A stretch of DNA of 64,000 nt from a virus (IMGVR_UViG_2799112923_000001); one strand, 5' to 3'; shown: positions 28,989 through 50,440, numbered from the stretch's first letter. Program-made: numbers and translations. Notes: generated from the sequence alone by a model not told the origin.

Positions 28989-29062
28989 GTGGCTATATCA
29001 TAGTCTGGTTAATGAGCCTGTTTACCAAACAGGTTACCTGGGTTCAAATCCCAGTAGCCACT
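28989..29062 (+). tRNA. tRNA-Gly(ACC)
   Basis: CCTGT-TTACCAA-ACAGG, U73. Confidence 0.8.
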
Positions 29063-29070
29063 TACCAAAT

Positions 29071-29159
29071 GCTTATGTGACCCGAGTCTGGCGAAGGGGG
29101 CGGTCTGCAAAACCGTTGTGTTTACAGCACCATCGTTGGTTCAAATCCAATCATAAGCT
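29071..29159 (+). tRNA. tRNA-Cys(GCA), long variable arm
   Basis: GCGGT-CTGCAAA-ACCGT, U73. Confidence 0.85.
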
Positions 29160-29163
29160 CTAT

Positions 29164-29234
29164 ATCTCATTGGTGTAACGGCAGCATGGCTGGTTCCAAC
29201 CCAGTTGGTGGGGGTTCAAATCCTTCATGAGGTG
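29164..29234 (+). tRNA. tRNA-Trp(CCA)
   Basis: GCTGG-TTCCAAC-CCAGT, G73. Confidence 0.85.
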
Positions 29235-29247
29235 CGAAAGTAAATAA

Positions 29248-29319
29248 GTCCTATTGGTGTAGCTGGAAACATGGCAGTCTTCCAAACTGGTGTCGCGGGT
29301 CCGAACCCCGCATAGGGCT
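29248..29319 (+). tRNA. tRNA-Gly(TCC)
   Basis: CAGT-CTTCCAA-ACTG, U73. Confidence 0.85.
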
Positions 29320-29338
29320 CTACAAACAAACTATCATC

Positions 29339-29412
29339 TCCGTATTAGTGTTAATTGGTTAGCACGCAAGTTTGTGGCACTTGTAGTCTGAGTTCAAATC
29401 TCAGATATGGAA
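29339..29412 (+). tRNA. tRNA-His(GTG), lacking G-1/C73
   Basis: CAAGT-TTGTGGC-ACTTG. Confidence 0.8.
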
Positions 29413-29415
29413 TAT

Positions 29416-29487
29416 ATCTCCGTATGTCAATGGTTAGACGAGCAGACTCTTAATCTGTGGATCTGGGTCCGAATCCCAGCGGGGGTA
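29416..29487 (+). tRNA. tRNA-Lys(CTT)
   Basis: GCAGA-CTCTTAA-TCTGT. Confidence 0.9.
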
Positions 29488-29501
29488 CGAACAAATTAAA
29501 T

Positions 29502-29574
29502 GGGCTTACATGTTCCTTGGAGGCGAATCTCCCTAGCACGGAGATTGTGATGGGTCCGATTCCCATTAGGTCCA
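29502..29574 (+). tRNA. tRNA-Ala(AGC)
   Basis: TCTCC-CTAGCAC-GGAGA, G3:U70, atypical D arm. Confidence 0.75.
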
Positions 29575-29583
29575 CGAAATCAT

Positions 29584-29614
29584 AACTGGTAAACTTTTGT
29601 TTACCAGTTTTTTG
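29584..29614 (+). terminator. Terminator ending tRNA cluster 1
   Basis: AACTGGTAAAC-TTTT-GTTTACCAGTT+T run. Confidence 0.85.
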
Positions 29615-29710
29615 ACGTTTTGTAACTTTCTTTTTACAATTATGGGTCAGTTATCTATTGACAAATACAGTATAAAATTCTATATTATTATAATAAAAAG
29701 AGAGGTAACT

Positions 29711-29938
29711 ATGAAATCCAATTTTACTTATCACAGCAACGCAAAATTTGAACTGAACATTCGTTTCAAGACTGTTGAAACAGCTCATGTGTTTGCGTGG
29801 GATTATAATTGCGAATGCCGCGACCACGCTGAAGATTGGGTTGATGTATGGCTGGATAAGAAATCCGACCTGAACAAATTCGTAAAAATCGTTATGAATG
29901 ACCCGGATGTTGAACACTTCTCTGTGAGCAAGTTCTAA
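29711..29938 (+). CDS. Hypothetical protein
   Basis: GAGGT RBS after promoter. Confidence 0.7.
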   Translation: MKSNFTYHSNAKFELNIRFKTVETAHVFAWDYNCECRDHAEDWVDVWLDKKSDLNKFVKIVMNDPDVEHFSVSKF

Positions 29939-30174
29939 TGAACGAAACTACTATCAAATTTATCATTCTCAATGTTATTAATGGTAAAGCCGTTCAAACT
30001 TGGTCTTTTGCTGACAAGGCCCATATCGTGTATTGTAAATCTCCCGAATGGGCTATGAAATTTGATACTATGGAAGATGCTCAAAAGAGAGTGGAATACC
30101 TGAAAAAGAATTTTCCTAGTCAAAAATTGACCGCTATGAAATTCACTAAAACTGTTACATACAAGGTAGGATAA
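29938..30174 (+). CDS. Hypothetical protein
   Basis: TAATG coupling. Confidence 0.65.
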   Translation: MNETTIKFIILNVINGKAVQTWSFADKAHIVYCKSPEWAMKFDTMEDAQKRVEYLKKNFPSQKLTAMKFTKTVTYKVG

Positions 30175-30177
30175 ACT

Positions 30178-30447
30178 ATGAAAATTAGACCAGCATCAAG
30201 TTTTCTTGATTTAGATACAGCCATGAAAATGGTAAAAGAAATCAATACTCTAACAGAATTGAAGAATGAAATCACTACCGCTACCGATGGTTGGTTTAAT
30301 GCGGAAACTGTGACTTGCCTGGAACATGGTTATGATGACCGAACAGGTTGGAACACATATTTAATTTGTTGTGATTTTACCAATGGCAAATATAAGCAGC
30401 AGGCTGTGTTCTTTGCCGATAGCCCAATTTCCGATTTGAAGGAGTAA
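30178..30447 (+). CDS. Hypothetical protein
   Basis: Operon continuity. Confidence 0.65.
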   Translation: MKIRPASSFLDLDTAMKMVKEINTLTELKNEITTATDGWFNAETVTCLEHGYDDRTGWNTYLICCDFTNGKYKQQAVFFADSPISDLKE

Positions 30448-30450
30448 ATT

Positions 30451-30735
30451 ATGTGCGATGGTGCTATTGTTGGTTGTATTGCGTTTTGTTTCTTGATAAT
30501 TCTCGTTGGTGCATTTCTGTATGATACATACGGACCGAAACTAGACGATTTGCGAATTGTTGAATTAGAAAACGGAAAATACGCAGTTGAGAAGTATACA
30601 TTTTGTGGAATGGATGAAACAGGCACAGATGAATGGGTACGAATAAAAGAATTTAATTCTTTGAAGAAAGCCCAACAGTACAAACAACTTAAAACTCCCA
30701 AAGAAGAAACAAAAATTAAACGAGTAATCAAGTAA
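30451..30735 (+). CDS. Small membrane-anchored protein
   Basis: N-terminal hydrophobic segment. Confidence 0.65.
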   Translation: MCDGAIVGCIAFCFLIILVGAFLYDTYGPKLDDLRIVELENGKYAVEKYTFCGMDETGTDEWVRIKEFNSLKKAQQYKQLKTPKEETKIKRVIK

Positions 30736-30745
30736 GGAGAAAAAT

Positions 30746-30985
30746 ATGATTGGATTGATTATTTCTTTTATATTGTTTGGTGTTATCGTTTGGGGCTGTA
30801 TTGCCCGACAACATTCAACTACTAGACTTGTTCTTTCTTACATTCAAGAAGGTTTGGCTGTGGCTATGGCATTTATTCAGGTCGGCTGGGGCAACTATTT
30901 CTGTTGTTTGTGCGATGTTGCTATCGCAGGTCTAGCCATTTATTACATTCTCAAACAACATAATCCAAGTTCGGAAAGGAGATAA
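30746..30985 (+). CDS. Small 3-TM membrane protein
   Basis: Three hydrophobic segments, AAGGAG RBS. Confidence 0.7.
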   Translation: MIGLIISFILFGVIVWGCIARQHSTTRLVLSYIQEGLAVAMAFIQVGWGNYFCCLCDVAIAGLAIYYILKQHNPSSERR

Positions 30986-30987
30986 AT

Positions 30988-31230
30988 ATGATGATTACCA
31001 TTTTGACTATTATTTTGCTAACACTAATTTTCACCGAATTTTTTCTCTTTAAGAAGAAAGAAGCTCGTTATTGGATAAATCTGGTAGAAGTAATAATCGC
31101 AACATTTTTGAGTGGTTATTATTTCCACGAAAATGATATTTTGGGAACTGTGTGTAATTTTGTGGTTAGTCTGATGGCAATATGTTATGTTATCTGTTAT
31201 ACGATATGCGGGGAAGATGATGTCCATTGA
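30988..31230 (+). CDS. Small 3-TM membrane protein
   Basis: Three hydrophobic segments, AGGAG RBS. Confidence 0.65.
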   Translation: MMITILTIILLTLIFTEFFLFKKKEARYWINLVEVIIATFLSGYYFHENDILGTVCNFVVSLMAICYVICYTICGEDDVH

Positions 31231-31456
31231 GTGTTTCTTTTCAGTACTTAATTTAGTTCTATTTGGTGTTATTTTATCCAAATTCTTCTTTATTAAGAAC
31301 TATCCTGTACTTGTAAGTTTTTGTGTAGCCCAACTTATATTGTCAGCTATCATTATGGTTTATGATGTAGCAGTTAATAATTTGTTTGGTGCGATTTTAG
31401 ATTTGGTTGTTTTAATGCTGGCTATCTTTGAAATACAAACTATAAAGGAGAAATAA
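31217..31456 (+). CDS. Small 3-TM membrane protein
   Basis: Three hydrophobic segments. Confidence 0.6.
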   Translation: MMSIECFFSVLNLVLFGVILSKFFFIKNYPVLVSFCVAQLILSAIIMVYDVAVNNLFGAILDLVVLMLAIFEIQTIKEK

Positions 31457-31671
31457 TGCTCAACTTGCCGGGACCATTTCCACCACCAGTCATTCCACCA
31501 GTTTATTATATCCCAGATGAAGATGATGTAGATTTTCCCAGTTGGAAGGATGCTTCCATTGGGATGAAAATCTATCTTTGCTTTTTATATGGTTTACTCG
31601 GTTTAGCCGGTATTGGAACTTTACTTTTAATTTGTTTAACTATTAAAGTTGTTATTGAAACATTTAACTAA
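31456..31671 (+). CDS. Small membrane protein
   Basis: Pro-rich N-terminus, acidic patch, C-terminal TM. Confidence 0.65.
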   Translation: MLNLPGPFPPPVIPPVYYIPDEDDVDFPSWKDASIGMKIYLCFLYGLLGLAGIGTLLLICLTIKVVIETFN

Positions 31672-31680
31672 GGAGAACTT

Positions 31681-31920
31681 ATGTTTAATATCTTAATGGG
31701 TATCGCAGTTATAGTAGGTATGCTATCAGCTATCGCATATCTAGTAGTTATGTTTAAACATCGTGGAAATCCAACTTATGATTCTACTGTAACACTAATG
31801 GGTCTCTCAGTTCTAGCCTTTATTGGTTGTTTATCTGCTCAGGCTTGGATGGGTGTAATTTGTTGGATTATCTGTTTTTGTACGCAGCTATATACATTCA
31901 TTAGAATTGGTAAAGATTAA
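31681..31920 (+). CDS. Small 3-TM membrane protein
   Basis: Three hydrophobic segments, AGGAG RBS. Confidence 0.65.
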   Translation: MFNILMGIAVIVGMLSAIAYLVVMFKHRGNPTYDSTVTLMGLSVLAFIGCLSAQAWMGVICWIICFCTQLYTFIRIGKD

Positions 31921-32354
31921 ATTCTACAGTTCTCAAAAATAAAAATTTTTGGATCAGTATAAACAAATTAACTATATTTGGCAATAAAATAGTAAGTCTA
32001 TTTCCTCGGAGCGAAGCTCAACTCAATGCAGTTATCGGTAGAGGGATAGCCATTTTGCCAAATAGTTCGGTGGCATCGGAATGTAAGAACATCGTAGTTT
32101 GGATTAGCAACCCAAACATATAGCCGCTTTGGTAGAATAGAATGTAGCTGGAGTACAGGAAAACCGACCCATAAGTCTATTCGTAAATCCCACAGAAGTT
32201 GATACTTATACTTTATACAAAAAAGAAGGTATCTCAAGTTCTAGTTGACCTAACTAGGCTTGAAGTATCCTCTTACCATTACCAAAAAAGAATTCATTAA
32301 AAATCATTTTTGAGTTTATCTCAAAAATGATTTTGTTTGCGTTAGCAAACATAC

Positions 32355-32660
32355 TTATTCTAAAAATTCTTCTATTGATTCTTTCTTATATTCTTTGAAT
32401 GATATTAAATATGGATCTTCTCTATACACACTCTCAAAAGAAATTAGAGTGCACTTTAAAATATCGTCTGTATTAGAAAGAAATCCATTAAAATGAGTCT
32501 GAAAAGAACTTTCTTCTTTTTTAATAGATTTAGTGAAATTAGTTAGATATGGGTCATTTTCTATTGTACTCTCAAATAATAACAACTGAGATTTAAGTTC
32601 ATCAGTTGTATTTGATAATGAACCATAAAATGAAGTTTTGATTTGATTATTATTTTCCAT
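32355..32660 (-). CDS. Hypothetical protein with internal duplication
   Basis: Two copies of T.F.G.LSNT.D.LK..L..FES....DPYL..F. Confidence 0.55.
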   Translation of the reverse strand: MENNNQIKTSFYGSLSNTTDELKSQLLLFESTIENDPYLTNFTKSIKKEESSFQTHFNGFLSNTDDILKCTLISFESVYREDPYLISFKEYKKESIEEFLE

Positions 32661-32727
32661 ATTATTATTGAATAATTGTTTGTTATTTATTATATTCAAC
32701 TTATAAACTCAAAAAGGATAAAAAACT

Positions 32728-33567
32728 ATGTTATATGAAGAAATGAGAAGTTATTGCTATCGTCATGGCAGATGGGATGAAGAACATAAGTTTGATAAAC
32801 GAAGTTCAGGTATCAGTAAAGAAGAATTTAAAGATTTTTTAACCAGTCATAATTTTACTAAAGATAGCTGGGGAACATGGGATAATGGAACGATTAAGAT
32901 TAGTTCAATTAACTCAGGTTATAATGAAGGAACAATATATGAAATTGCCCACATACAGTTCAAGAATAGTAAGACTGATGCTTGTTTGAAGTATGAAGGA
33001 AAAAGTTTTGGTGAATACATTTTTGATTTGTATGTAAAGAATTATACAGATTATTATACAAAGGGTATGGATGCTACAAGGTATCAGTTTACCGGTGATT
33101 CAAATTTATGGAAGGAATTTTTCTTTAAAGAATTTGAAATAGCCATAGATAAATTAAATACCAAATGGGCATTGAAACATAAGAAAGATAAAATCGCAGA
33201 TAATCTACAACAGATTGAAAATGAGATAGATTATGCGATTGAAGAAGTAGCAGATGAATTAAAGCAATATAATATCAAGTTAGAAACAACTAACAATGAA
33301 ATTGCGTCAACCACATTAACATACAGATTTTCAAAAGATATTAAAGCCCGAATACATTTACCTTGTATAATCATTCGTAAACTGAAGAATGGTAAAAATA
33401 CAATGTGTTATCGTGATTATAATACTTATGATAATGATTTTTCTGTTTGGAAGAAAGTAAAAGATGGCACAACACCTGACGAAATCAAGCAGTTCATTAA
33501 AGATTATTTTGAACCTTGGTACGGGTTAAAAGATATTTACATTAAGAAACCTGGGTTTGTTGACTAA
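32728..33567 (+). CDS. Hypothetical protein
   Basis: 279-aa ORF with AAGGA RBS. Confidence 0.75.
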   Translation: MLYEEMRSYCYRHGRWDEEHKFDKRSSGISKEEFKDFLTSHNFTKDSWGTWDNGTIKISSINSGYNEGTIYEIAHIQFKNSKTDACLKYEGKSFGEYIFDLYVKNYTDYYTKGMDATRYQFTGDSNLWKEFFFKEFEIAIDKLNTKWALKHKKDKIADNLQQIENEIDYAIEEVADELKQYNIKLETTNNEIASTTLTYRFSKDIKARIHLPCIIIRKLKNGKNTMCYRDYNTYDNDFSVWKKVKDGTTPDEIKQFIKDYFEPWYGLKDIYIKKPGFVD

Positions 33568-33678
33568 AATTTACATATTTGTAAACAAAAATTTACATAA
33601 AAAGGCAGTTGTTATATTGACAACTGCCATATTTTTATCTATATTTACTATGTAAAACAATCAAACAAGAGGTAACAC

Positions 33679-33837
33679 ATGAACGAATATATCCCCGCTG
33701 GCTTTAAGAGTTGGACTGAATACAACCGAGTTCAGGAAAAGAAGGCAAAGAGAAAATACATTCTCCAGGGAATTGCGGGAATGTTGGTTTTCTTTGGTGC
33801 TATTGCTCTTGATGGTATCACCACCCTTTACATGTAA
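33679..33837 (+). CDS. Small membrane protein (52 aa; not in ORF track)
   Basis: GAGGT RBS after promoter; MNEYIPAGFKSW...GMLVFFGAIAL. Confidence 0.6.
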   Translation: MNEYIPAGFKSWTEYNRVQEKKAKRKYILQGIAGMLVFFGAIALDGITTLYM

Positions 33838-33851
33838 TGGAGGTACAAACA

Positions 33852-34187
33852 ATGGATAACAATGAAATTTCTTTCCGTTCTATCAAACCTTATTCAATGA
33901 CAGAACTCCGCCGCTATAATCGTACAACTGCTGAACAGAAGCGGAAGGACGAAATTGACGCATATCTCAATAACATCAATTACAAAATCTTTACGGCCTG
34001 GACTGAAAGCGAAGTAGACCGAGTAACTATTGACCTGGATAATAATTTGTACGATAGTTACAAGCTCAAGAAAGAACTCAAAGAATTGGGTTATGAAATT
34101 GAATTACATCGTGAAATTGACAGTTACACCCGTAATCTTGTTCCTGTAACGATGGTGGTAAAATTCCCTGAACAGAAGGAGGCATAA
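33852..34187 (+). CDS. Hypothetical protein
   Basis: GGAGGT RBS. Confidence 0.7.
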   Translation: MDNNEISFRSIKPYSMTELRRYNRTTAEQKRKDEIDAYLNNINYKIFTAWTESEVDRVTIDLDNNLYDSYKLKKELKELGYEIELHREIDSYTRNLVPVTMVVKFPEQKEA

Positions 34188-34266
34188 ACTATGGAACAGT
34201 ACATTCTTGACATCGCATTTGTTATTACAGGTTTCGTTATTGGTTATATCGTGAGAGGTATGAAGA

Positions 34267-34584
34267 ATGGCTAAAAGACATCGTAGAACCAAAGCAGAAA
34301 TGATTGCTTACAGGGCACAAAAGGCGGAAAAGAAGGCTCAAAAGTATCTTAACAAGATTAACAAGAAGAAAGAAGAAAATCCGCAGGTTATCGGTATGCG
34401 ACCAGTGAACTATCAGGTCACAGATCCCAATGACCCAAACACATACGATTTTTGTGATTTCGTTGGAACAGAAGAAGAAGTCAATTCTTTTATGAAGAAG
34501 CACCCTGAGTATGATTTTGTTGGTAATGCTCCATATTTGTACGAAGGTAATAAGTTCCGAATCACTTACTGGAAGAAAAAGTAA
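34267..34584 (+). CDS. Hypothetical protein with basic N-terminus
   Basis: KRHRRTKAEM start. Confidence 0.7.
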   Translation: MAKRHRRTKAEMIAYRAQKAEKKAQKYLNKINKKKEENPQVIGMRPVNYQVTDPNDPNTYDFCDFVGTEEEVNSFMKKHPEYDFVGNAPYLYEGNKFRITYWKKK

Positions 34585-34633
34585 AATGTTTACATTATCA
34601 CACCCAATTAAAAGTATTAAAAGGAGTACGAAT

Positions 34634-35125
34634 ATGGGTCTGTATAACAAACTATCAAAGATTGAACAACTGATTGAAGCGAACACAAAGATTTCTTATT
34701 GGGCCTGGACAGAAGGTTGGATTTCTGTTGAACAGCTCCCTGATAAGATGCGTGAATGTATGATTCAGTTTGGTTACAAGAAAGACGCTCCACTTTTCGG
34801 TGTTCATGTTCGCTCTCCAGGAAAAAATAATGGTGGTGATACAACTGTTTACGATTTGATTTACATTTCGCCTGGTAAAGATGATAATGCTAAGTGGACC
34901 GATTTGCTCTATAAAGATGTTGATAGGGACTGGCGTTATACTGTTATGTTCAACCACAATAACAATATGACTGAAGAATTGAAAAAAGAAAATGATGGTA
35001 AACTAGAAAAATGTTATAATACATTAAGCAAACTGTTTGCTTTCCTTAACATTTACATTCGCCATCGTGAAGAACTTGTTCAGTTGGTAAACATTGAATA
35101 CGATCAGTTGGAAGATTTAAAATGA
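34634..35125 (+). CDS. Hypothetical protein, paralog of 35888 ORF
   Basis: AGGAG RBS; MG.Y.K..KI...P...RE..  ..G.K...F...Y.L...SP shared. Confidence 0.7.
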   Translation: MGLYNKLSKIEQLIEANTKISYWAWTEGWISVEQLPDKMRECMIQFGYKKDAPLFGVHVRSPGKNNGGDTTVYDLIYISPGKDDNAKWTDLLYKDVDRDWRYTVMFNHNNNMTEELKKENDGKLEKCYNTLSKLFAFLNIYIRHREELVQLVNIEYDQLEDLK

Positions 35126-35511
35126 AACCTTGGAATAGTGCATACAGAAATAATGTGAAAGAAATTTTAACATGGATAAAGAATAAACAATTATTCCCAA
35201 ATGTTTATCTTGAAGGATATTCAAACGAATGGATTGGATGCGACATTATCTGTAAAATAGGTGCTAGTCATCATATTGTGATCTGGTGTTGTACGGGTGA
35301 ATATACACATGACCGAAAGTCAAGACCATTTTATGTTATTCGTTATGAAAAGAACAATGAATGTAACAGATATGAAGTATTTAATTTAAAACAGATTTAC
35401 AAATTCTTTGAACTATCCAAAGATATTGGTTATAAGAATGCTGGTGAATATATTGACAAACAAACTAAATTAATAAATGAACAATTAAAAATTTCAAAGG
35501 ATTTTGAATGA
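35122..35511 (+). CDS. Hypothetical protein, DF-tail family
   Basis: Ends QLKISKDFE. Confidence 0.7.
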   Translation: MKPWNSAYRNNVKEILTWIKNKQLFPNVYLEGYSNEWIGCDIICKIGASHHIVIWCCTGEYTHDRKSRPFYVIRYEKNNECNRYEVFNLKQIYKFFELSKDIGYKNAGEYIDKQTKLINEQLKISKDFE

Positions 35512-35888
35512 AACCTTCAGTCAGTGCTATAAAAGAGAACATAAAATTTGTTCGTGATTTTATGGATAAAGAAAATATCAAATATGATATTACATTCCAA
35601 CATCCAACCAGTTTTATGTGTGAAGTGCGAGGATATTCAGTAACTTTTTGTGTTCACATTGAATTAGAGAAGTATTTTGAAATTCGGAATTCAAAAATAA
35701 AATACAGAATTGGAAGGTGGTGCGGGTGTCCAGGACCATTTTTTGAGTTCACCACAAACAGAAGATGGGAAAGTACATATTTTTTACGAACAATAAAACA
35801 TCTCGGCATAGAAGAAGGTGTTAAGTTTTTTGAGAAATTATCTAAACGAAAAGAGATGATTTCAGCAATAAAAGAGGATTTTGAATAA
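35508..35888 (+). CDS. Hypothetical protein, DF-tail family
   Basis: Ends ISAIKEDFE. Confidence 0.7.
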   Translation: MKPSVSAIKENIKFVRDFMDKENIKYDITFQHPTSFMCEVRGYSVTFCVHIELEKYFEIRNSKIKYRIGRWCGCPGPFFEFTTNRRWESTYFLRTIKHLGIEEGVKFFEKLSKRKEMISAIKEDFE

Positions 35889-36409
35889 TGTTAGAAACAA
35901 TTAAGAGGGCATTTAATATGGGAATTTATGGAAAAATTCAAAAGATAACAGACTGGTTAGACCAAAAATATAACATTACTAACTGTTGGGTAAATTTTTC
36001 ATACACAGTTAAGAATTTTCCAAAAGACTTTAGGGAGACGTGTTATTATATTGGACTAAAAGATGCGGACACCATTTTTGCCATTAATTACAAATTCACA
36101 AATGGAAAACAGTATACATTGGTCGCATTATCCCCACCAATGGATGAAAAATGTAAGACTGACGATTATAGTGTAATTTTTAAGCGAAACTATTGGCAGT
36201 TCCAAAGTAGATGGTTTGAAACATTTGATGAAAATCTTTATATAAAAGAAAAGAATCCCCATAAGCAGGTGGAAGAACAGATTGAAAATATCTTTATTCA
36301 TTTACAGAATTTTTGCCAAACCATAGAATTACTGACAAAACAGCTCAAAGCCATGCCCACATTACAGAAAATTGAAACAGATTTCACGAAAACAACGGAA
36401 GAAGTGTAA
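35888..36409 (+). CDS. Hypothetical protein, DF-tail family
   Basis: LQKIETDF near C-terminus. Confidence 0.7.
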   Translation: MLETIKRAFNMGIYGKIQKITDWLDQKYNITNCWVNFSYTVKNFPKDFRETCYYIGLKDADTIFAINYKFTNGKQYTLVALSPPMDEKCKTDDYSVIFKRNYWQFQSRWFETFDENLYIKEKNPHKQVEEQIENIFIHLQNFCQTIELLTKQLKAMPTLQKIETDFTKTTEEV

Positions 36410-43323: not shown

Positions 43324-43396
43324 ACTGTGAATGTTCATATTGTAGGAAAACAGAAACAAGATTTTCACCGCAACATAAAACTGTTGCGGTTTTTTG
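43304..43396 (+). promoter_or_regulatory. Antiterminator/terminator switch before tRNA cluster 2
   Basis: Terminator ACCGCAACA-TAAAAC-TGTTGCGGT+T run; 43304-43319 pairs 14/16 with 43356-43371. Confidence 0.7.
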
Positions 43397-43429
43397 TTTA
43401 TATATTTTTACAAAAATTATTCATATTTT

Positions 43430-43835
43430 GGTTGACAAGGGGGTAATGGATTACTATATTATAGTGTGTTAAGAGAATGGTTTGGTTCGTGAAACCAAAT
43501 AGTAGATTGAAAATTGGAATGTGTAAAAAATTTGCGTTTGTTAATACTCGCCTTGGTTGTGGTTGTGAACCACCTGCGGATAGAGATTAACAAATGTAAA
43601 TTACATTTTACAAAAAAAATTCAAAATATGGGTTGACAAACGATAAACAATTAACTATCTTTGTTCACACAAAGAAAATGATTGGTTCGTGAAATCAATT
43701 TGTAGATTGAATGATTTGGAAAATGTAAAAATAAAATTTACAAAAAAATTTACTAAAATGGGTTGACAAACAGAAAATGTTTTACTAAATTTGTGAAACA
43801 CGAATGATTGAAAATCGTTTGAGTAGATTGAAATT
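43430..43835 (+). promoter_or_regulatory. Three tandem sigma70 promoters each followed by a short repeat ending GTAGATTGAA
   Basis: GGTTGACAA at about 43430, 43631, 43762 with TA.TAT/TAAAT -10 boxes. Confidence 0.75.
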
Positions 43836-44119
43836 GTGGATTTTATAGTTCAAAACATAGGAACTGACGAAAATCGGACCCGGCTAGAATCGGGTAGATG
43901 GTATGGACCTGAAAAATTAAATTGCAGGATTTCTATGTAATCATTTGAACAAACTACAACAAACTAACAACTGACAGAAATGTTTGTTGTGGGTGTTTGA
44001 ATGGAACAAAAATTTTGAATGAAATGGTTAGATTGCAGCAGTTCTATTAAATCAACAATGTGACCCTTGTTGAGCCAATTTGTTCAAAACAAGAAGGAAC
44101 AACTTGTAAAAACCAAAAT

Positions 44120-44192
44120 GGGTTTGTAACTCAGTTGGTAGAGTAACGCACTTTTAATGCGTGAGTCGGGGGTCCGAGTCCCCCCAAGCCCA
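44120..44192 (+). tRNA. tRNA-Lys(TTT)
   Basis: ACGCA-CTTTTAA-TGCGT. Confidence 0.9.
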
Positions 44193-44292
44193 CGAACAAA
44201 CTAATGTTCCAAAAGGGAAAAAGCGGGTGGCTCATAGAGCCTAGCCACAAGATGGAAGCCCGCCCACTCAGGTGCGATTTTTGGAATGTTAC

Positions 44293-44366
44293 CGGGATGT
44301 AGTTCAATCTGGTAGAATGGTCGCTTTGGGAGCGAGTGGTTGCAGGTTCAAATCCTGTCATCCCGA
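44293..44366 (+). tRNA. tRNA-Pro(TGG)
   Basis: TCGC-TTTGGGA-GCGA. Confidence 0.9.
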
Positions 44367-44679
44367 CGAAAGGTTTAAGATTTGGAAACCGTTAACCTTT
44401 AAAAATGGGTAGGATATGATGGTAGTCCTTTTAACACTGACATCCATTAATTGTTATGTTGTTTAAATTAGGAAAGCAGGGATGCGATAACCTGCACGAT
44501 TAACCAACATCGTTAGTTCATTTGTAGTTAGAACAAATTAAACAACTGACTATGGGATATAAACTATCTTGAAGGCCAAAAGATATTATCCCCGAGTAGA
44601 TAGGCGAAACCGGTTCGTAATAAACAAGGCTCTCGCCACGATTTTAATAGTTTGTGATGATACAAACAACAGAACTTAT

Positions 44680-44763
44680 TGGTAGGTACCCGAGTGGTAG
44701 CAGGGGGGAGACTGTTAATCTCTTGTCGCAAGACCGCCGCAGGTTCGAATCCTGCCCTATCAG
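44680..44763 (+). tRNA. tRNA-Asn(GTT), Tyr-like long variable arm
   Basis: GGAGA-CTGTTAA-TCTCT, G73. Confidence 0.85.
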
Positions 44764-45105
44764 CTAAAAGAATGAATGGTTAGTAGTACAAATGAACTCA
44801 ATGTAGTAATACTGAGTGCTTAGTACACTCTCCAATAAACCGGAGAGAGATGTTAATGTGACTGTTATGGGTCATTGGTTTAACCTAACTGAGTGTTTAA
44901 CAAAATCACATTTGGTAGTAAAAGGTACAAACTACGCCTGCGCAGATGCCGGGAGTTGCCAACATCCTAAATTGGTAATGTGGTGAATGAATACAAACTA
45001 AACTGGATGATGTTGTATTCTACGAACAATATAATTACCAGTAGTCAATTATGTTGCGAGGCACTTTTTTCCATAGTATGCGTCAAAATGGAACAAATTT
45101 TATAT

Positions 45106-45190
45106 GCTAGTTTCGGATAGTGGTCAATTCCTGGAGACTGTAAATCTCCCGCCCTCTGGGCTTTCGGTGGTTCAAATCCACCAGCTAGCA
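45106..45190 (+). tRNA. tRNA-Tyr(GTA)
   Basis: GGAGA-CTGTAAA-TCTCC. Confidence 0.9.
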
Positions 45191-45226
45191 CTAATACAGA
45201 ATTTTGAAGAATGGTGATGTGAAACA

Positions 45227-45302
45227 GTCCCCATACGCAAGTGGCTAAAGCGGCTCCCTGAACGAGGGAGTGAATTCATGGGTTCAAATCCCATTGGAGA
45301 TT
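45227..45302 (+). tRNA. tRNA-like element, nominal Val(AAC) or pseudo-tRNA
   Basis: D and T arms intact; CTCCC-TGAACGA-GGGAG; mismatched acceptor. Confidence 0.5.
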
Positions 45303-45566
45303 GAAGTAGCATTGAACAAATCAGGCCTCATACGCAATTTGTTCTAACCAAACTTCATCGGGTGAATAGATGATTGAAAATCCTAGGTAATCATTCAGTC
45401 ACAATTCACCCACCGGTTTTGAAGAAAACTAAATCAACAGGTGGTGTTATACTATTAATTTGTTGTAAACATAGTTGATTCCCACCCGCCCGTCTAAAAA
45501 GATGAATGTGAAGGCCTCCGGCGATGCTCCGATAAACGCATTGTGATTTAGAACAACATTTTTTTC

Positions 45567-45640
45567 GCACCCGTGGCTCAACTGGATAGAGCAACGCACT
45601 TCTAATGCGTAGGTTGTAGGTCCGAGTCCTACCGGGTGTA
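45567..45640 (+). tRNA. tRNA-Arg(TCT)
   Basis: ACGCA-CTTCTAA-TGCGT. Confidence 0.9.
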
Positions 45641-45650
45641 CTAAATTTAC

Positions 45651-45723
45651 TGGGGTATAGCCAAGCTGGTAAGGCAGGGGCCTTTGAAGCCTTTATTCGG
45701 GAGTTCAAATCTCTCTACCCCAA
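45651..45723 (+). tRNA. tRNA-Gln(TTG)
   Basis: GGGGC-CTTTGAA-GCCTT. Confidence 0.9.
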
Positions 45724-45836
45724 CGAAATCAGTTGATGAATGCATCTCAATGTTTAGAAACACAGAACGCATGGTGGAAATCCTGCAAGCAGAAGTTGTG
45801 ACTGCGATAATAAATTAAATAACAACAAATTCTTTC

Positions 45837-45910
45837 CCATCCTTAGTTCAACTGGTTAGAGCGCGGCTCTTATAAGGCTGAAGTTCTAGGTTCAAATCCT
45901 AGAGGGTGGA
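45837..45910 (+). tRNA. tRNA-Ile(TAT)
   Basis: CGGCT-CTTATAA-GGCTG. Confidence 0.85.
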
Positions 45911-45944
45911 CTACCGCTTTTCGCCATAGTACGGGTCAAAATGG

Positions 45945-46445
45945 CAAAATGTGAAAGTAGTTCAAAAGCGATTAGCACCACGCAAATACAAGGTTTGTAT
46001 TGGATGCAAGTTTGACAAGCGTTTCGCTAGTGGTAAGAACGAGTTGCTTCCGAAGATTGGCAGAATCAGCTATGTAAGGCTGTTTAGGAAGTGTAAAATG
46101 CAAGTGTTATGTAGTACACGGACCACGCAAGGTAAATGACCTTATGCTATGCCCACGATAGTCTTTCACTCACAAAGTAGATATATGTGAAAAATACCAA
46201 GTGGTTTACCAATTTGCCTCTATCTACAAAATTGGAAAATCTTTAATGGTTATAGACGAAACTGACCAATGTAAAATAGTTATATGCTCCTTGATAAAGT
46301 GGAATTTATTTTGGATAAAGTATATTATAAAATCTATTTGAATAATACAATAGTTAGACGTTTAGCAGTGAAAAGTTAGACAGAGTAATGATGGCTCGTT
46401 AAGCCCTATCCGAGGGTGTAGTTGAATGGCACACTGGTAAGAACA
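45945..46445 (+). ncRNA. Candidate large structured ncRNA
   Basis: About 500 nt without a credible ORF between tRNAs, many short helices. Confidence 0.35.
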
Positions 46446-46479
46446 AAAACTAAATGAACTAAACAAAACATCATACTAT

Positions 46480-46563
46480 GGCCTGGTGATGAAATTGGTA
46501 AACATAGGGGACTTAAAATCCCCCGGTGGTAACACCTTGTGGGTTCAAGTCCCACCTTGGCTA
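46480..46563 (+). tRNA. tRNA-Leu(TAA)
   Basis: GGGGA-CTTAAAA-TCCCC. Confidence 0.9.
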
Positions 46564-46591
46564 CGAACAAAATAATTGGAGATTATTAACT

Positions 46592-46801
46592 ATGATTAAT
46601 ACTGGTTGGGTTCCAGGTTATCTACAAACTACTGGCAGAATGTTACATGAGAGTGGCAAACGCGGTGGTGGTTGTGGTGGACCGAAGAAAGACGATGACG
46701 ATGATGACGAAGATATTAGCATTGTAAAGATTTTACTTTTTTTGTTATTATTCTTTGGTATTGTTGGATTATTCTTTTTCTTGCTTTGTGTTATGTTTTA
46801 A
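46592..46801 (+). CDS. Small membrane protein within tRNA cluster
   Basis: GGAG RBS; poly-D then C-terminal TM. Confidence 0.6.
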   Translation: MINTGWVPGYLQTTGRMLHESGKRGGGCGGPKKDDDDDDEDISIVKILLFLLLFFGIVGLFFFLLCVMF

Positions 46802-46917
46802 TTGTGAAGTTTAGCAAAAACAAAATTCATAAATAAACCATTGACAAACATAAAACAAAAAACTATAATTGAATATGTAAACGATACGAATTTAGACGGA
46901 TAGTCAATTTCTTTCGG

Positions 46918-46991
46918 GCCTCATTGATGTAGTGTTAGCATGAAATGTTTCCGACCTTTTCGCCTGAGTTAGATTCTCAGATGAGGCTCCA
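46918..46991 (+). tRNA. Atypical tRNA-Gly(TCC)
   Basis: GCCTCAT/ATGAGGC-T-CCA; no D-loop GG; T loop TTAGATT. Confidence 0.55.
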
Positions 46992-47094
46992 AAAAGAAAA
47001 AAGAATTTTGGTTTCCAATTTTTCCTTAAAAATTGGTGGTGGTCGCTTGGAATTTTGTTAGTTTATCCATGACCAAAACAAAACTAACAACCAT

Positions 47095-47179
47095 CCTCCG
47101 ATGGCGGAACTTGGTAGACGCGCTGGACTCAAAATCCAGTTCTCGCAAGAGAGTGTGAGTTCAATTCTCACTTGGAGGA
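47095..47179 (+). tRNA. tRNA-Leu(CAA)
   Basis: CTGGA-CTCAAAA-TCCAG. Confidence 0.9.
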
Positions 47180-47399
47180 CTAATACCAAAGTAAAATAGA
47201 GAACTGTGATTTAAAAGTATCAGGTAGTTTGTAGTACTGACCTTAACAAAAACTAGGAAATTTGAAGAGTCATTGGCTTAACCAATGTGGAGCGATACCC
47301 CTGATAAGGGTTCCCGCAAGCTGTGTAGTGCTTTGAACTACACACAAATTTAGAAGGAGAAAATGGTTTGTTAATTTACCACAAATAAATTAACACCAT

Positions 47400-47472
47400 G
47401 CCTGGTTAGCACAGCTGGTAGTGCAGCGGCTTTGTAATCCGCAGGTCGGGGGTTCGGGTCCCTCACCAGGCG
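47400..47472 (+). tRNA. tRNA-Thr(TGT)
   Basis: GCGG-CTTTGTAAT-CCGC. Confidence 0.85.
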
Positions 47473-47485
47473 TAATAAATAAACA

Positions 47486-48100
47486 GATTGAGAAATCAAT
47501 CAAGCGAAATCTTTAGCCTAATACAAATCTAATCTGGTTTGAAGGCACTATGGATGCACTGAAAAGGTGTTTGAAGTAGGTATGAGATAATCGCAAAAAC
47601 ATAGGGTAAACTGCGTAACTATTAGTTAGAGGTTTATATGTTTGTGGAATTTTGAGATACCCAGGGTTCCACAGGCTACGAAACAGATGTGGCGTCTGAG
47701 TTCAAATATAAGTCGCTAAAGCCGAAATAGTGAGAGTTTTATCGGATGACAGATATGCTATTTTTGGCACAGATTGCCGATATGTGTGTAAATCCACACC
47801 AGTGACTTGTAGCATTGAAAGGGGTAGCTGCCGAGTAAATGTGTTGCTGTGACCTAATAATGTTTGGTTATTTCATTAAAGGTAAACCCCAGTCCTTTAA
47901 GTTTCGTTTTATTGATTTTTCAATCTTGAACAAGATAATCCAGGAAACGGAGGTTTGTTATCTCATAGCGACGCACTGCTATCTGTAAGATAATGAGCGG
48001 GCACGAAATGGAAGCGCTGACACTCTAAGCTCTGTTAGACATGGACTGATAATTAATATATCTTGTTAGGGTACCTAAATGTCCGAGAGTACCTGCCATT
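47486..48100 (+). ncRNA. Candidate large ornate ncRNA (ROOL/GOLLD-like context)
   Basis: 47486-47508 pairs with 47902-47925; 47581-47590 pairs with 47958-47967; no ORF. Confidence 0.55.
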
Positions 48101-48193
48101 TAAACAAAAACATACTTGGTTGTCCTACGAACCTTCACGATTTTTGAAATCGTAAAGGAATGAGAGTTTGTATGTTCTCTCATAAGATTTTAT

Positions 48194-48267
48194 CGCGGGG
48201 TGTAAGCAGTTGGTAGCTGGCAAGGCCCATAACCTTGAGGTCGCGGGTTCAAGTCCCGCCCCCGCTA
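48194..48267 (+). tRNA. Initiator tRNA-fMet(CAT)
   Basis: CGCGGGG acceptor with C1 mismatch; CAAGG-CCCATAA-CCTTG. Confidence 0.85.
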
Positions 48268-48738
48268 GAATTTGTCCACAAAGAAAAATGCGGTCAGAAC
48301 GCATTGGACCTTTTCCTGGTGAGAGCCTCGTAACTAGGACTGTAGCAAACGAGGCAACGAATTTAACGCGGCACAATTATTCTTTTTGCGAATTTGTTTA
48401 AAACAAACACAGATTCCACCATAAGAAGAAATAATTTCGTACAAACGCAAATAATCCTAATGACGTCTAATGGAACGATTGTGAGTGCGGCGACCAATTA
48501 ACTAATGGCTGATAGACGATAAATAAAATGAAGATATGAATATGGTTGCGGGTTGAGTCTAGATATTCCTTCTAGAATTATTCATTTCTCGGAAGTGACG
48601 AATCGGTATTCTTCCGGGCCATTATTTTGAAATTTAAACGTCTCCTAGGCGGTTATTGGTTCTTTACAATTTTCTCCACTAATCAAAAGAAAATCTATTT
48701 TTTGTTTGTTGTTACCTCCTTGGGTTGTGGTTGACCCA

Positions 48739-48771
48739 ATGCTCACTAGCGAATGTTAGTGAGCATTTTTT
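48739..48771 (+). terminator. Terminator ending tRNA cluster 2
   Basis: ATGCTCACTAGC-GAAT-GTTAGTGAGCAT+T run. Confidence 0.85.
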
Positions 48772-48958
48772 GTAAGTACTGGTGCCATACTGACCAGTTT
48801 TTATTTAATTGGTATAGTTTACTATCCAACACAGAAATCGCCTTATAACGCAAGTACTGACGAATACTGTGTAAACAAACTTTTACAAAGAAATAGTTGC
48901 CAACCTGTATATTAGTTACTATATTATGGTTGTTAAAAATTAAAAGAGAGGTAAAAAT

Positions 48959-49150
48959 ATGAAGAAAGTTTATGTTCTCACATACAACACTATGGATAAG
49001 CCTGAACGTCGCATGATTTGGGGTGTTTATGGCTCAAAGGCAACAGATAAGGAAAACCACGATGAAGCAGAAAAGGCTCGTCAGGGCATTATCAAGCAGT
49101 ATGGTTCATTCCTAGCAGATACAGAAATTGATGAACAAGAAGTAAGGTAA
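48959..49150 (+). CDS. Hypothetical protein
   Basis: GAGGT RBS after promoter. Confidence 0.65.
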   Translation: MKKVYVLTYNTMDKPERRMIWGVYGSKATDKENHDEAEKARQGIIKQYGSFLADTEIDEQEVR

Positions 49151-49717
49151 ATGGATTATAAACAATCTATCGGTGCCGTTGTTAGGCATTTTTACGAACA
49201 CCATACTGATGTATGGTGTTTTTGTCCTGGTTTCCCTAATAATTACAAAGAAATGAAGTTATCCGAATTTGGTGAAACTGATGAAGAAATTGCGAACAAG
49301 ATAATAGACCAGTTACATGAAACTAAACTAGAATTTGAAATGTTCAGTTCCGACAACAGTCATCCAGGTGGTTCATTTTATGGGCCGTCATTGTATATTG
49401 AAAATGGTTATACTCCATTCCCAGATGGTGGAAAACCTAAATGGATTACTGGTACATTGAAAATGATACAACAAGTTCCAATGTTAAGGTATTATGGTGA
49501 TGATAAACGAATTTTCCAGTTAGGAAGTAAACCTGTAAATTTTTATTTCACACAACAGTTTAAAGGGCAAAACGATTTTGATAATTATTTGAAGTATTTG
49601 AAGAAAACAGAAGAAATAATCAAACACAACAAAGAATATCAAGATAGATTTGAAATTGATAAGAAATATGTAAAAGCCCAAGACCTGGAACAAGCAATTC
49701 AAACTGATTTTGATTAA
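49151..49717 (+). CDS. Hypothetical protein, DF-tail family
   Basis: Ends LEQAIQTDFD. Confidence 0.75.
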   Translation: MDYKQSIGAVVRHFYEHHTDVWCFCPGFPNNYKEMKLSEFGETDEEIANKIIDQLHETKLEFEMFSSDNSHPGGSFYGPSLYIENGYTPFPDGGKPKWITGTLKMIQQVPMLRYYGDDKRIFQLGSKPVNFYFTQQFKGQNDFDNYLKYLKKTEEIIKHNKEYQDRFEIDKKYVKAQDLEQAIQTDFD

Positions 49718-49863
49718 CACAGTTCGCCACCAAACAAAATGATTATTGTGGCTATTGAAAAATTATAAATAATAAACTATATTATAACTACTAAAATGGT
49801 TTACATTTAGCCCCCTGAGCAATTTGTGTATGGGATTGGTTAAATGGTTTGCCTTAAAATCTA

Positions 49864-49985
49864 CCACCCGTGGTGTAATGGTAGCACGGTAGGATATAAT
49901 AGAGATAAATTATTATTGATTTTTATAATAGAGTTATATAATAATAATTGGAATCAGGTGGGTGGTTCAAATCCCCCGGGGTGGT
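49864..49985 (+). ncRNA. tRNA-like RNA with AT-rich insertion replacing anticodon arm
   Basis: CCACCCG-TGGTGTAATGGTAGCAC 5' half; GGTTCAAATCCC-GGGGTGGT 3' half. Confidence 0.6.
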
Positions 49986-49998
49986 CTAAATTAGAATT

Positions 49999-50166
49999 TG
50001 GGTATAGTTCCCTGCACACAGTTCTAGAATGCGTGTTCAAGAAGCCCGCAGTAAGACCTCTGTGAAAGGTTTGGTGAGTTATCCTTGTCGCAAGGCACGA
50101 AGATTTGAAAGGGAATAAATGGATTAGATAGCAACTCAACTATCGCCGGGCGCAGTCCAATACCCA
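49999..50166 (+). ncRNA. Candidate structured RNA (about 170 nt)
   Basis: TGGGTAT/ATACCCA closing stem, TTCCCT/AGGGAA, GCCCG/CGGGC, GAGTT/AACTC. Confidence 0.45.
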
Positions 50167-50193
50167 TCACATTTAATACAAAGGAAAAACAAG

Positions 50194-50349
50194 ATGAAAA
50201 AGAAGAAAGTAGTTATTGAGAAAGAAACACAGGAACAGAAAGAAGCTCGTTGGAAGAAGAATTTGAAGATGGCACGAAGTTTTGCTAAACAAGCAGGTGT
50301 AAAGAAAGAAAAGAAAGTAGAAAAGCAATCGGAAAAATACGATTACTAA
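50194..50349 (+). CDS. Small Lys/Glu-rich protein (51 aa; not in ORF track)
   Basis: AAGGA RBS. Confidence 0.55.
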   Translation: MKKKKVVIEKETQEQKEARWKKNLKMARSFAKQAGVKKEKKVEKQSEKYDY

Positions 50350-50357
50350 CTACAGTT

Positions 50358-50440
50358 GGAGGATTAGCCTAATTGGTAAGGCAGCAGATTACTAATCTGC
50401 CGCGGGAAACCGCTTGGGGGTTCAAGTCCCTCATCCTCCG
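50358..50440 (+). tRNA. tRNA-Ser(ACT)
   Basis: GCAGA-TTACTAA-TCTGC, long variable arm, G73. Confidence 0.85.

Follow-up and report, generated by a model that had tools for sequence, protein, structure and literature searches.

tRNA genes in two arrays

The window, i.e., the whole 64 kb stretch of phage DNA analysed here, contains two tRNA arrays, in which genes for tRNAs with adenosine at wobble position 34 (A34) sit among ordinary tRNA genes. The tRNA set of the phage is near-complete. The relevant features are as follows.

27745..29575, + strand: tRNA array 1, 18 tRNAs called by default plus Ala(AGC)
28091-28167: Ala(UGC), U34 partner in array 1
28809-28894: Ser(UGA), U34 partner in array 1
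28902..28975, + strand: tRNA-Arg(ACG) (ARAGORN; Rfam 56.5 bits), loop CUACGAA
28989..29062, + strand: tRNA-Gly(ACC), family A body (ARAGORN; Rfam 63.2 bits)
29248-29320: Gly(UCC), U34 partner in array 1
29502..29575, + strand: tRNA-Ala(AGC), non-canonical D arm (ARAGORN at -ps95), closing array 1
44120..50441, + strand: tRNA array 2, 14 called tRNAs
45226..45303, + strand: tRNA-like 'Val(AAC)', doubtful (ARAGORN; Rfam 34.1 bits, sensitive scan only)
45567-45641: Arg(UCU) in array 2, the natural competitor of Ser(ACU) for AGA/AGG
46918-46991: second Gly(UCC), in array 2
50358..50440 (Rfam 50357-50441), + strand: tRNA-Ser(ACU), type II, last gene of array 2 (ARAGORN; Rfam 59.6 bits)

Array 1, with promoter-like sites nearby at 27269 and 27385, combines Arg(ACG), Gly(ACC) and Ala(AGC) with U34 partners; 3' of the array, after 29583, the sequence itself shows a hairpin and then a run of T. 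Array 2 is syntenic in the window and two related phage genomes (G001 and G002).

Canonical tRNAs were defined as those scoring above the Rfam RF00005 gathering score (29 bits) and also called by ARAGORN, and Gly(ACC) and Ser(ACU) are both canonical elongators by this definition. An earlier note on this DNA had described the two as well formed, the former at 28989 with U73 and the latter at 50358 with a long variable arm and G73, and both descriptions hold. The 7-bp acceptor stem of Gly(ACC) is perfect and includes G1:C72 and G3:C70; the gene lies inside the array with Arg(ACG) directly upstream and Cys(GCA) on the other side. Arg(ACG), which the note had mentioned as the usual bacterial case, is indeed present as an A34 tRNA of the ordinary bacterial type, its loop being the canonical one for TadA; seven sequence variants of it occur in relatives, six with CUACGAA and one with CUACGGA. 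The anticodon loops of Gly(ACC) (UUACCAA), Ser(ACU) (UUACUAA) and Ala(AGC) (CUAGCAC) are all 7 nt long with U33 and a purine at position 37.

The note had proposed a set of four A34 tRNAs, of which Gly(ACC), Ser(ACU) and Ala(AGC) stand and the possible Val(AAC) is doubtful. The Val(AAC) candidate has G33 in place of U33 (loop UGAACGA) and an acceptor mismatch, C4-A69, and no homologues were found in relatives or IMG/VR.

Conservation of the A34 tRNAs in a phage clade

Carriers of the A34 tRNAs form a clade of large T4-like rumen phages. ACC, ACU and AGC all recur across contigs of this clade, as a survey of related phages suggested by the note reveals, and since the same anticodons are found in independent assemblies, A34 is not a sequencing error. 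Each of the three anticodons occurs on two divergent tRNA bodies, and in all three tRNAs conservation is highest in the anticodon loop and the stems co-vary. The tRNAs are well formed and maintained by selection.

The ACC anticodon is present in 10 contigs including the window, as five distinct sequences. Identical or near-identical copies of family A are found in G001, L062, L053, L077 and L059. The two Gly(ACC) families share only 59% identity, with compensatory changes in 13 of 24 pairs and an invariant loop. The identity set of bacterial tRNA-Gly consists of U73, C35, C36, G1:C72, C2:G71 and G3:C70. Both families carry U73, C35 and C36, and each retains two of the three acceptor identity pairs (G1:C72, U2:A71 and G3:C70 in family A; G1:C72, C2:G71 and A3:U70 in family B).

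The ACU anticodon is present in four phage genomes (window, G001, G002 and L133). Identity of tRNA-Ser depends on the long variable arm and G73, and SerRS does not read the anticodon. G73 and a self-pairing variable-arm hairpin are conserved in the window, G001 and L133. Against the window gene, the G001 and L133 orthologues show compensatory replacement of 12 of 26 pairs, located in the acceptor, D, V and T stems, with the loop invariant. The G002 copy is ~50% identical to that of the window and has a Ser(UGA)-like body, for which the discriminator call is uncertain. The anticodon arm of the window Ser(ACU) is the same as that of Ser(GCU) in an unrelated phage (L004) except for base 34. This arm occurs 116 times in 185,579 species genomes, with A34 in only one case, a fragment from the same phage clade.

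Ala(AGC) is less clear-cut. In the window it was not called by ARAGORN at default settings and was not listed by Rfam even at E<1; its detection needed the ARAGORN threshold to be lowered to 95%. It has C8 and lacks U8 and A14, its 4-bp D stem contains three G-U pairs, and its T loop (UCCGAUU) has C55. Counting the window, 10 contigs carry the AGC anticodon; of the nine others, two are short fragments. The named carriers are the window, G001, G002, L053, L077, L047, L049, L062 and L133. Canonical and odd-D-arm types of Ala(AGC) both exist. The gene is 100% identical to that of the window in L047 and L049 and has two changes in L062, and the diverged L133 gene retains the cloverleaf with compensatory changes in 8 of 21 pairs. 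In this comparison, 96.8% of cells are paired, against 40-57% in slid controls. The identity elements of tRNA-Ala are G3:U70 and A73. Both are present in the window copy, and G3:U70 is invariant among the copies of the window, L062 and L133; it is kept also in G001 and G002, in which the acceptor 3' strand has one bulged U followed by A73. The note's Ala(AGC) at 29502 is thus upheld as a conserved tRNA with G3:U70, but in the window it is borderline and below default detection. Judged by its sequence, the window Ala(AGC) is a real tRNA even so.

The lack of U8 and A14 in this gene, and its absence from default calls, would be consistent with A34 tRNAs being non-decoders, i.e., amino-acid donors (for instance Gly-tRNA serving a Mom-like modification of DNA, or transfer of the cell-wall type), decoys or pseudogenes in decay. 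This is very improbable: the genes lie within arrays of ordinary tRNAs, retain U33, purine 37, full cloverleaves and identity elements, and have the conserved loops and co-varying stems described above. A Pfam scan of the 91 window ORFs detected no Mom-like, acetyltransferase-like or transferase family. Also, one A34 peculiarity common to three amino-acid specificities points to decoding.

Codon usage

For Gly, Ser(AGY) and Ala, the A34 anticodons correspond to the codons that the phage uses most. In the window, GGT accounts for 61% of Gly codons and GCT for 40% of Ala codons, and AGT for 28% of Ser codons versus 6% for AGC, in agreement with the note's remark that GGT, GCT and AGT are frequent; GTT accounts for 46% of Val codons. 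In the A34 clade, GGT/GGY is 0.76-0.83, AGT/AGY is 0.68-0.82 and GC3 is 0.30-0.37. G003, a distant relative with C-richer codons (0.49, 0.29 and 0.53, respectively), has Gly(GCC) and Ser(GCU) in place of the ACC and ACU tRNAs. In the structural genes of the window, AGY is the most T-biased two-codon box (T-fraction 0.89), and boxes read by G34 tRNAs have T-fractions of 0.57-0.82, all below AGY. However, the bias to T at third positions is genome-wide and extends beyond the boxes of A34 tRNAs, GTY and CCY being equally biased, and the L059 lineage has T-rich codons yet carries Ser(GCU). The correlation with codon usage thus depends on what is essentially a single evolutionary contrast.

L059, in which Ser(GCU) adjoins Gly(ACC), also bears on the idea that the main selective force was escape from host tRNA-targeting defences or toxins. 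According to this idea, a host nuclease cleaves or modifies GCC, GCU and GGC anticodons, and A34 isodecoders go unrecognised while still decoding. The near-complete tRNA set, which suggests independence from the host pool, and the unusual features of several tRNAs (C55 T loops, odd D arms and a bulged acceptor) would fit such escape. Nevertheless, it is improbable as the main force: Ser(GCU) is retained beside Gly(ACC) in L059, RNA-repair genes are absent from the window ORFs, and the match to T-ending codons is more simply explained by decoding. Moreover, we know of no nuclease specific for the Gly(GCC), Ser(GCU) or Ala(GGC) anticodon, and the present analysis identified none. Nuclease-evading phage tRNAs described previously resemble the present ones in being phage sets with anticodon loops unlike those of the host, but their changes lie outside the anticodon or they avoid the cleaved anticodons, and no wobble switch to A34 is described (PMC10264068).

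Probable decoding by A34

On balance, Gly(ACC), Ser(ACU) and Ala(AGC) are probably real decoders selected for Watson-Crick pairing between A34 and U3, with A34 itself probably unmodified. The gene structures, conservation, covariation, identity elements and codon match come from the present analysis, whereas expression, charging, the absence of inosine and the decoding range of these tRNAs are inferred. They would function as phage-encoded elongators charged with Gly, Ser and Ala, and would pair with GGU, AGU and GCU by Watson-Crick A:U, whereas ordinary GCC, GCU and GGC tRNAs are restricted to G:U wobble on the same codons. Selection would retain A at position 34 in a phage whose genes are T-rich at third codon positions. 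Neither SerRS nor AlaRS uses the anticodon, and of its bases GlyRS reads C35 and C36 alone, which would make A34 reachable for exactly these tRNAs.

TadA substrates have a loop of the tRNA-Arg2 type (C32 U33 A34 C35 G36 A37 A38). Among the phage A34 tRNAs, this loop is found only in Arg(ACG); Gly(ACC) departs from it at C36 and U32, Ser(ACU) at U36 and, in the window, also at U32, and Ala(AGC) at G35, C36 and C38. In E. coli, orthogonal tRNAs with ACU, ACC and AGC are not deaminated by TadA and show no inosine; the ACU tRNA decodes AGU with good efficiency (9.4%) and gives no detectable reading of AGC or AGA, and the U:C reading ratios of the ACC and AGC tRNAs are 76:24 and 52:48, respectively (PMC11066159). 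By analogy with these E. coli data, unmodified A34 is the more plausible state.

A different outcome, which seems unlikely, would be conversion of A34 to inosine by a relaxed host TadA or by a phage deaminase encoded outside the covered sequence, such that each tRNA decodes U-, C- and A-ending codons as in the eukaryotic cytosol. The phage keeps a canonical Arg(ACG), presumably dependent on host TadA, and the Gly and Ser loops have U33-A34-C35 and A37-A38 in common with it. Also, extra A34 tRNAs of some Firmicutes are in part inosine-modified (PMC8007984, PMC11066159). The TadA of the phage host could have a wider range than that of E. coli. However, E. coli TadA leaves all three anticodons unmodified and is blocked by changes at positions 32, 37 or 38 (PMC11066159). 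Inosine on Ser(ACU) would also read AGA, the commonest Arg codon of the phage (206/512), resulting in insertion of Ser for Arg. Searches for PF00383 and PF14437 deaminases gave no hit in the window ORFs (64 kb of the phage's own genome) or in 353 kb of G001-G003, in which about a third of each genome is covered; the remaining sequence could encode a phage deaminase or G34 isoacceptors.

GGC and GCC codons occur in short leader ORFs ahead of array 1, joined by AGC in L133. If these ORFs are truly codon-matched sensors, their usage is a hint that reading of codons ending in C, AGC among them, is expected, and such reading would fit inosine better than a Ser(ACU) reading AGU only.

Relation to known A34 tRNAs

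That bacterial A34 is almost confined to Arg(ACG), as the note had stated, agrees with the literature (PMC8007984). As in bacterial tRNA-Arg(ACG), of which the phage has its own copy adjoining Gly(ACC), the A34 described here is gene-encoded, but TadA is not known to act on ACC, ACU or AGC tRNAs. Natural A34 tRNAs outside Arg include the extra Leu-AAG and Thr-AGU of Leuconostocaceae and some Firmicutes and the tRNA-Thr(AGU) of Mycoplasma, and in Oenococcus oeni inosine is present in only two of the four A34 tRNAs (PMC8007984, PMC11066159). The phage tRNAs resemble these non-Arg A34 tRNAs, some of which function unmodified, but are phage-encoded and include Gly(ACC) and a tRNA of the Ser/Arg split box, whereas those cases lie in Leu and Thr family boxes.

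The only measured decoding ranges for these anticodons come from tRNAs engineered in E. coli, namely an orthogonal M. jannaschii tRNA-ANN series (PMC11066159) and a tRNA-Gly with ACC (Boren et al. 1993, cited in PMC11066159); ACU reads AGU, ACC prefers GGU over GGC and GGG, and AGC reads GCU and GCC about equally. These are laboratory constructs on a foreign body, whereas the phage genes are natural, kept under selection, and have native Gly, Ser and Ala bodies. A human tRNA-Gly given an ACC anticodon is aminoacylated yet escapes deamination (PMC8007984). The eukaryotic ADAT2/3 set of I34 tRNAs (TAPSLIVR) shares Ala-AGC with the phage, and in both cases A34-encoded tRNAs replace G34 readers of pyrimidine-ending codons; Gly(ACC) and every split-box ANN anticodon are left out of the eukaryotic repertoire, but the phage clade has both kinds. 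No ADAT-like gene was seen in the window ORFs or in the covered sequence of G001-G003.

The near-absence of A34, with no Gly(ACC) or split-box ANN anticodon in surveyed genomes, is a long-standing puzzle, and a 2021 review describes these anticodons as universally missing and 'prohibited', phages included (PMC8007984). As far as can be judged from gene sequences, there is an even chance that the present Gly(ACC) and Ser(ACU) are the first natural, selectively maintained examples that translate with an unmodified wobble A. If so, the 'universal prohibition' would not be a structural impossibility but a cost-benefit outcome, open to reversal by a lytic phage whose codons are T-rich. With a natural counter-example in several sequence variants, A34 avoidance becomes directly testable. 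The clade allows tests of deamination, of A34 specificity on a native body, of Ser(ACU) miscoding of AGA/AGG, and of Gly(ACC) toxicity or instability. The findings also bear on how large phages tune or replace host decoding, and in genetic-code engineering, natural decoders specific for U would be of use where codon boxes are to be split.

If A34 anticodons have repeatedly moved onto unrelated bodies, this would represent tRNA remoulding driven by a decoding benefit. One of the A34 tRNA bodies is ~80% identical to T5-type tRNA-His.

tRNA genes in the window

Thirty-two tRNA genes were called in the window by ARAGORN, in two arrays (27745-29488 and 44120-50441), and 31 of them have Rfam support, 30 at the gathering pass; Gly(UCC) at 46918 and Val(AAC) were seen by Rfam in a sensitive scan only. 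An earlier note had proposed a set of tRNAs with A as the first anticodon base (A34), namely Gly(ACC), Ala(AGC), Ser(ACU) and possibly Val(AAC), besides Arg(ACG), to be confirmed with tRNAscan-SE or ARAGORN. Arg(ACG), Gly(ACC) and Ser(ACU) form canonical cloverleaves with high scores and with U33 and A37, and all three are called at default settings. Their discriminators are as expected, with U73 in Gly(ACC) and, together with a long variable arm, G73 in Ser(ACU). The two other candidates are:

29502-29575, Ala(AGC): under the default thresholds of ARAGORN and Rfam; called by ARAGORN at 5% relaxation
45226-45303, 'Val(AAC)': G33, acceptor mismatch, low Rfam score

Ala(AGC) has G3:U70 and A73, but its D arm is unusual, with C8 and three G-U pairs, and its T loop is UCCGAUU. 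Homologues of Val(AAC) were found neither in relatives nor in IMG/VR, where an anticodon-arm pattern scan with N at position 34 gave no match, and on these grounds, together with the defects listed, this gene was dropped. Of the proposed set, Gly(ACC), Ser(ACU) and Ala(AGC) stand, alongside the ordinary Arg(ACG), and this set is real, conserved and unusual. A non-decoding role, for example as a glycine donor, does not fit, being at odds with the array context, the identity elements and the sharing of A34 by tRNAs for three amino acids.

Recurrence of A34 in related phages

Judged from its genes, the window comes from a large T4-like phage: Pfam identifies a RegA translational regulator, a T4 baseplate protein and a terminase domain among its ORFs, PHROGs identifies tail, terminase and ATPase families, and GC is 30-40%. 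An alternative genetic code was rejected in view of intact long ORFs under table 11 and the presence of Arg(UCU) and Trp(CCA). No close GenBank phage was found by blastn with the array region, which matched scattered tRNAs only. Relatives were recovered by pattern scans (N at position 34) and protein-anchored searches of IMG/VR, JGI/ENA metagenomes and one MAG; they are metagenome-derived, one fragment coming from a yak omasum MAG. This MAG is assigned to Clostridia, and the binning of the fragment with it is weak evidence as to the host. Relatives of 105-109 kb are ~31-32% complete according to CheckV, which puts these genomes at roughly 300 kb or more.

The survey of related phages recommended in the earlier note found the A34 anticodons again. 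Wherever array 1 (the cluster with Arg(ACG), Gly(ACC) and Ala(AGC)) was captured next to an ATPase at least 84% identical to that of the window, it contains Gly(ACC); this amounts to 10 contigs and five distinct sequences when the window and the MAG fragment L133 are counted. Ser(ACU) occurs in four contigs (the window, the related contigs G001 and G002, and L133), in a neighbourhood that varies among relatives. A canonical Ala(AGC) adjoins Ala(UGC) in G001, G002, L053 and L077, and the type with the odd D arm is found in the window, L047, L049, L062 and L133. The flanking DNA of close strains is ~96-97% identical to the window, indicating independent assemblies rather than copies. Because the same anticodons recur across such assemblies, base-call error at position 34, which the earlier note had raised, is ruled out. 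Pattern scans of IMG/VR (N at 34) with the G002-type Ser and Gly arms returned G002 itself only, and no relatives in IMG/VR were found for the protein at 50458-51252, downstream of Ser(ACU).

Conservation of the anticodon on divergent tRNA bodies

The A34 anticodons are each carried by two divergent bodies, a pattern that indicates selection on the anticodon itself. The two families of Gly(ACC), A (that of the window) and B, share 59% identity, which is no more than unrelated Gly tRNAs share, and they swap at one array position even between strains 97% identical elsewhere; in 13 of the 24 pairs both bases have changed, whereas neither the loop UUACCAA nor U73 varies. Ser(ACU) of the window, G001 and L133 shows compensatory changes in all four stems with the anticodon arm unchanged, and in G002 a Ser(UGA)-like body, only ~50% identical, still has ACU. 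Between the window-type Ala(AGC) and that of L133, 8 of 21 pairs differ, all in a compensatory manner, and 96.8% of cells are paired, versus 40-57% when partner columns are slid. The odd Ala(AGC) of the window is thus a conserved structured tRNA rather than a decaying copy.

For phage tRNAs in general, evasion of defences that target anticodons is a current idea (PMC10264068), but nothing here specifically indicates that A34 serves this purpose.

Origin of A34

Except at base 34, Ser(ACU) of the window and Ser(GCU) of an unrelated 208-kb phage (G005) have the same anticodon arm. This arm was found 116 times across 185,579 species genomes, with T (71), G (23), C (21) or A (1) at position 34, and the sole A34 is that of L133, a fragment of the same phage clade. 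Gly(GCC) and Ser(GCU) are found in a more distant relative, G003 (ATPase 41% identical), where Arg(ACG) is the only A34 tRNA, and the lineage L059 (ATPase 84%) has Gly(ACC) alongside Ser(GCU). A change from G34 to A34, or a move of the anticodon to other bodies, has therefore taken place within the group.

By established identity rules, SerRS and AlaRS ignore the anticodon and GlyRS reads C35 and C36 only; such indifference to base 34 would explain how Gly, Ser and Ala tRNAs could switch to A34 without loss of charging. The Asp, Asn, His, Tyr, Cys and Phe tRNAs retain G34, though their codons are equally T-rich.

The family A Gly(ACC) body (28989-29062) and the tRNA-His(GTG) seen in 289 records of T5-like phages (for example OL800604.1 76372-76448, L087) are ~80% identical over the full length; they share the acceptor stem and D arm, but Gly(ACC) has U73 rather than C73, and ACC rather than GTG. 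In L047 and L049, UCC is the anticodon of a tRNA with a similar body, 69% identical, in which the D and T arms are the same and the acceptor stem differs. Such likeness suggests remoulding of tRNAs between amino-acid identities within phage arrays. In the 208-kb phage G005, a suppressor-type tRNA with anticodon CUA (L046 1136-1210) is present, and Arg(GCG) takes the place of Arg(ACG); amber codons may be recoded in this phage.

Proposed decoding by A34 tRNAs

The analysis favours Watson-Crick reading by A34: the A34 tRNAs would read the dominant U-ending codons in this way, and those for Gly and Ala would also read C-ending codons. The best experimental guide comes from anticodons placed on a common tRNA body, rather than on the phage tRNAs, in E. 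coli, where ACU, ACC and AGC show no inosine (PMC11066159). With ACU, AGU is read efficiently (9.4%), AGG in traces, and neither AGC nor AGA at a detectable level; the ACC tRNA reads GGU and GGC at 76:24, and the AGC tRNA reads GCU and GCC about equally (PMC11066159).

Alternatively, inosine at position 34 (I34) would permit reading of C-ending codons. TadA is reported to be highly specific for the loop of tRNA-Arg2; a loop of this type, CUACGAA, is retained by the phage Arg(ACG), and the loops of Gly(ACC), Ser(ACU) and Ala(AGC) depart from it at 36 and in most cases at 32 or 38 as well. No deaminase gene was found among the 91 ORFs of the window or in 353 kb of three relatives, all of these being partial genomes. 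I34 on Ser(ACU) would read AGA, the commonest Arg codon of the phage, and conservation of Ser(ACU) therefore argues against its deamination. For Ser, the I34 alternative would fit somewhat better if short leader ORFs ahead of array 1 are real sensors, as their C-ending codons hint that such codons are meant to be read. A leader of 31-43 codons and, after it, a terminator-like hairpin lie ahead of this array in all relatives:

27494-27625 in the window, also in L035, L042, L059 and L133: leader ORF, upstream of array 1

These leaders use GGT and GGC, GCC and CGA, with AGC in L133; AGT and AGC occur in the leader where the array has Ser(GCU) (L059) or Ser(ACU) (L133). As a read-out of decoding range, the leader codons are suggestive only; some of them lack a matching tRNA in the array.

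Codon usage

As the earlier note supposed, GGT, GCT and AGT are frequent: in the window, GGT makes up 61% of Gly codons, GCT 40% of Ala, AGT 28% of Ser (AGC, 6%) and AGA 40% of Arg. The A34 clade and G003 compare as follows.

Codon bias in the A34 clade and in G003
Phages; GC3; GGT/GGY; AGT/AGY
A34 clade (window, G001, G002); 0.30-0.37; 0.76-0.83; 0.68-0.82
G003 (Gly(GCC), Ser(GCU)); 0.53; 0.49; 0.29

Among two-codon boxes in the structural genes of the window, T bias is strongest in AGY (0.89), and the boxes served by phage tRNAs with G34 are all lower (0.57-0.82). T bias is genome-wide, and it is just as strong in family boxes for which the phage has no tRNA that reads pyrimidine-ending codons, which rules it out as a decisive signature of A34 boxes. 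The codon bias is consistent with decoding by A34 but is not decisive.

Comparison with known systems

Phage-encoded tRNAs are known, but the anticodon class found here is not recorded as functional elsewhere. According to a 2021 review, tRNA-Gly(ACC) and all split-box ANN tRNAs except Ile are universally missing, as is A34 in the Ser-Arg box, and the same 'prohibited' genes are absent from phage tRNAs (PMC8007984). A34 is known in Leu(AAG) and Thr(AGU) of Leuconostocaceae and some Firmicutes (PMC8007984), and unmodified A34 in Oenococcus and Mycoplasma (PMC11066159). A literature search covering sources other than subscription journals found no report of phage or cellular Gly(ACC) or Ser(ACU) decoders.

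Other tRNA-like and RNA elements

Unusual tRNA structures are also seen outside the A34 set. C55 T loops (UCCGAAU or UCCGAUU) occur at 29248-29320, 29416-29488 and 29502-29575 and in several relatives; position 55 is nearly universally U (pseudouridine 55). In G001 and G002 (L035 8131-8287; L042 18453-18607), the 3' strand of the acceptor is 8 nt long in both Ala(UGC) and Ala(AGC), one U being bulged; G3:U and A73 are retained, and pair 7:66 differs between the genomes in a compensatory manner. Two more tRNA-like genes, at 28305-28385 and 28642-28718, are uncalled by ARAGORN and Rfam; one resembles Phe(GAA) but has an abnormal T arm, relatives having a callable Phe(GAA) there, and the other is Ile(GAU)-like, its D arm being displaced. 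In a distant relative whose ATPase is 36% identical, a tRNA-like gene of 75 nt (L082 20235-20309) is called Leu(AAG) by ARAGORN; its loop UGAAGGG has G33, as in the window's Val(AAC); such G33 genes may be a recurring class.

The window also has tRNA-Ile(UAU) (45837-45911), which is kept in G001 (L034 15928-16002); ATA makes up 20% of the phage's Ile codons, and UAU is the single UNN anticodon generally lost in prokaryotes (PMC8007984). Just downstream of array 1, a strong full-length match to the cow-rumen-2 RNA motif (Rfam, 103 bits) lies at 32091-32195.
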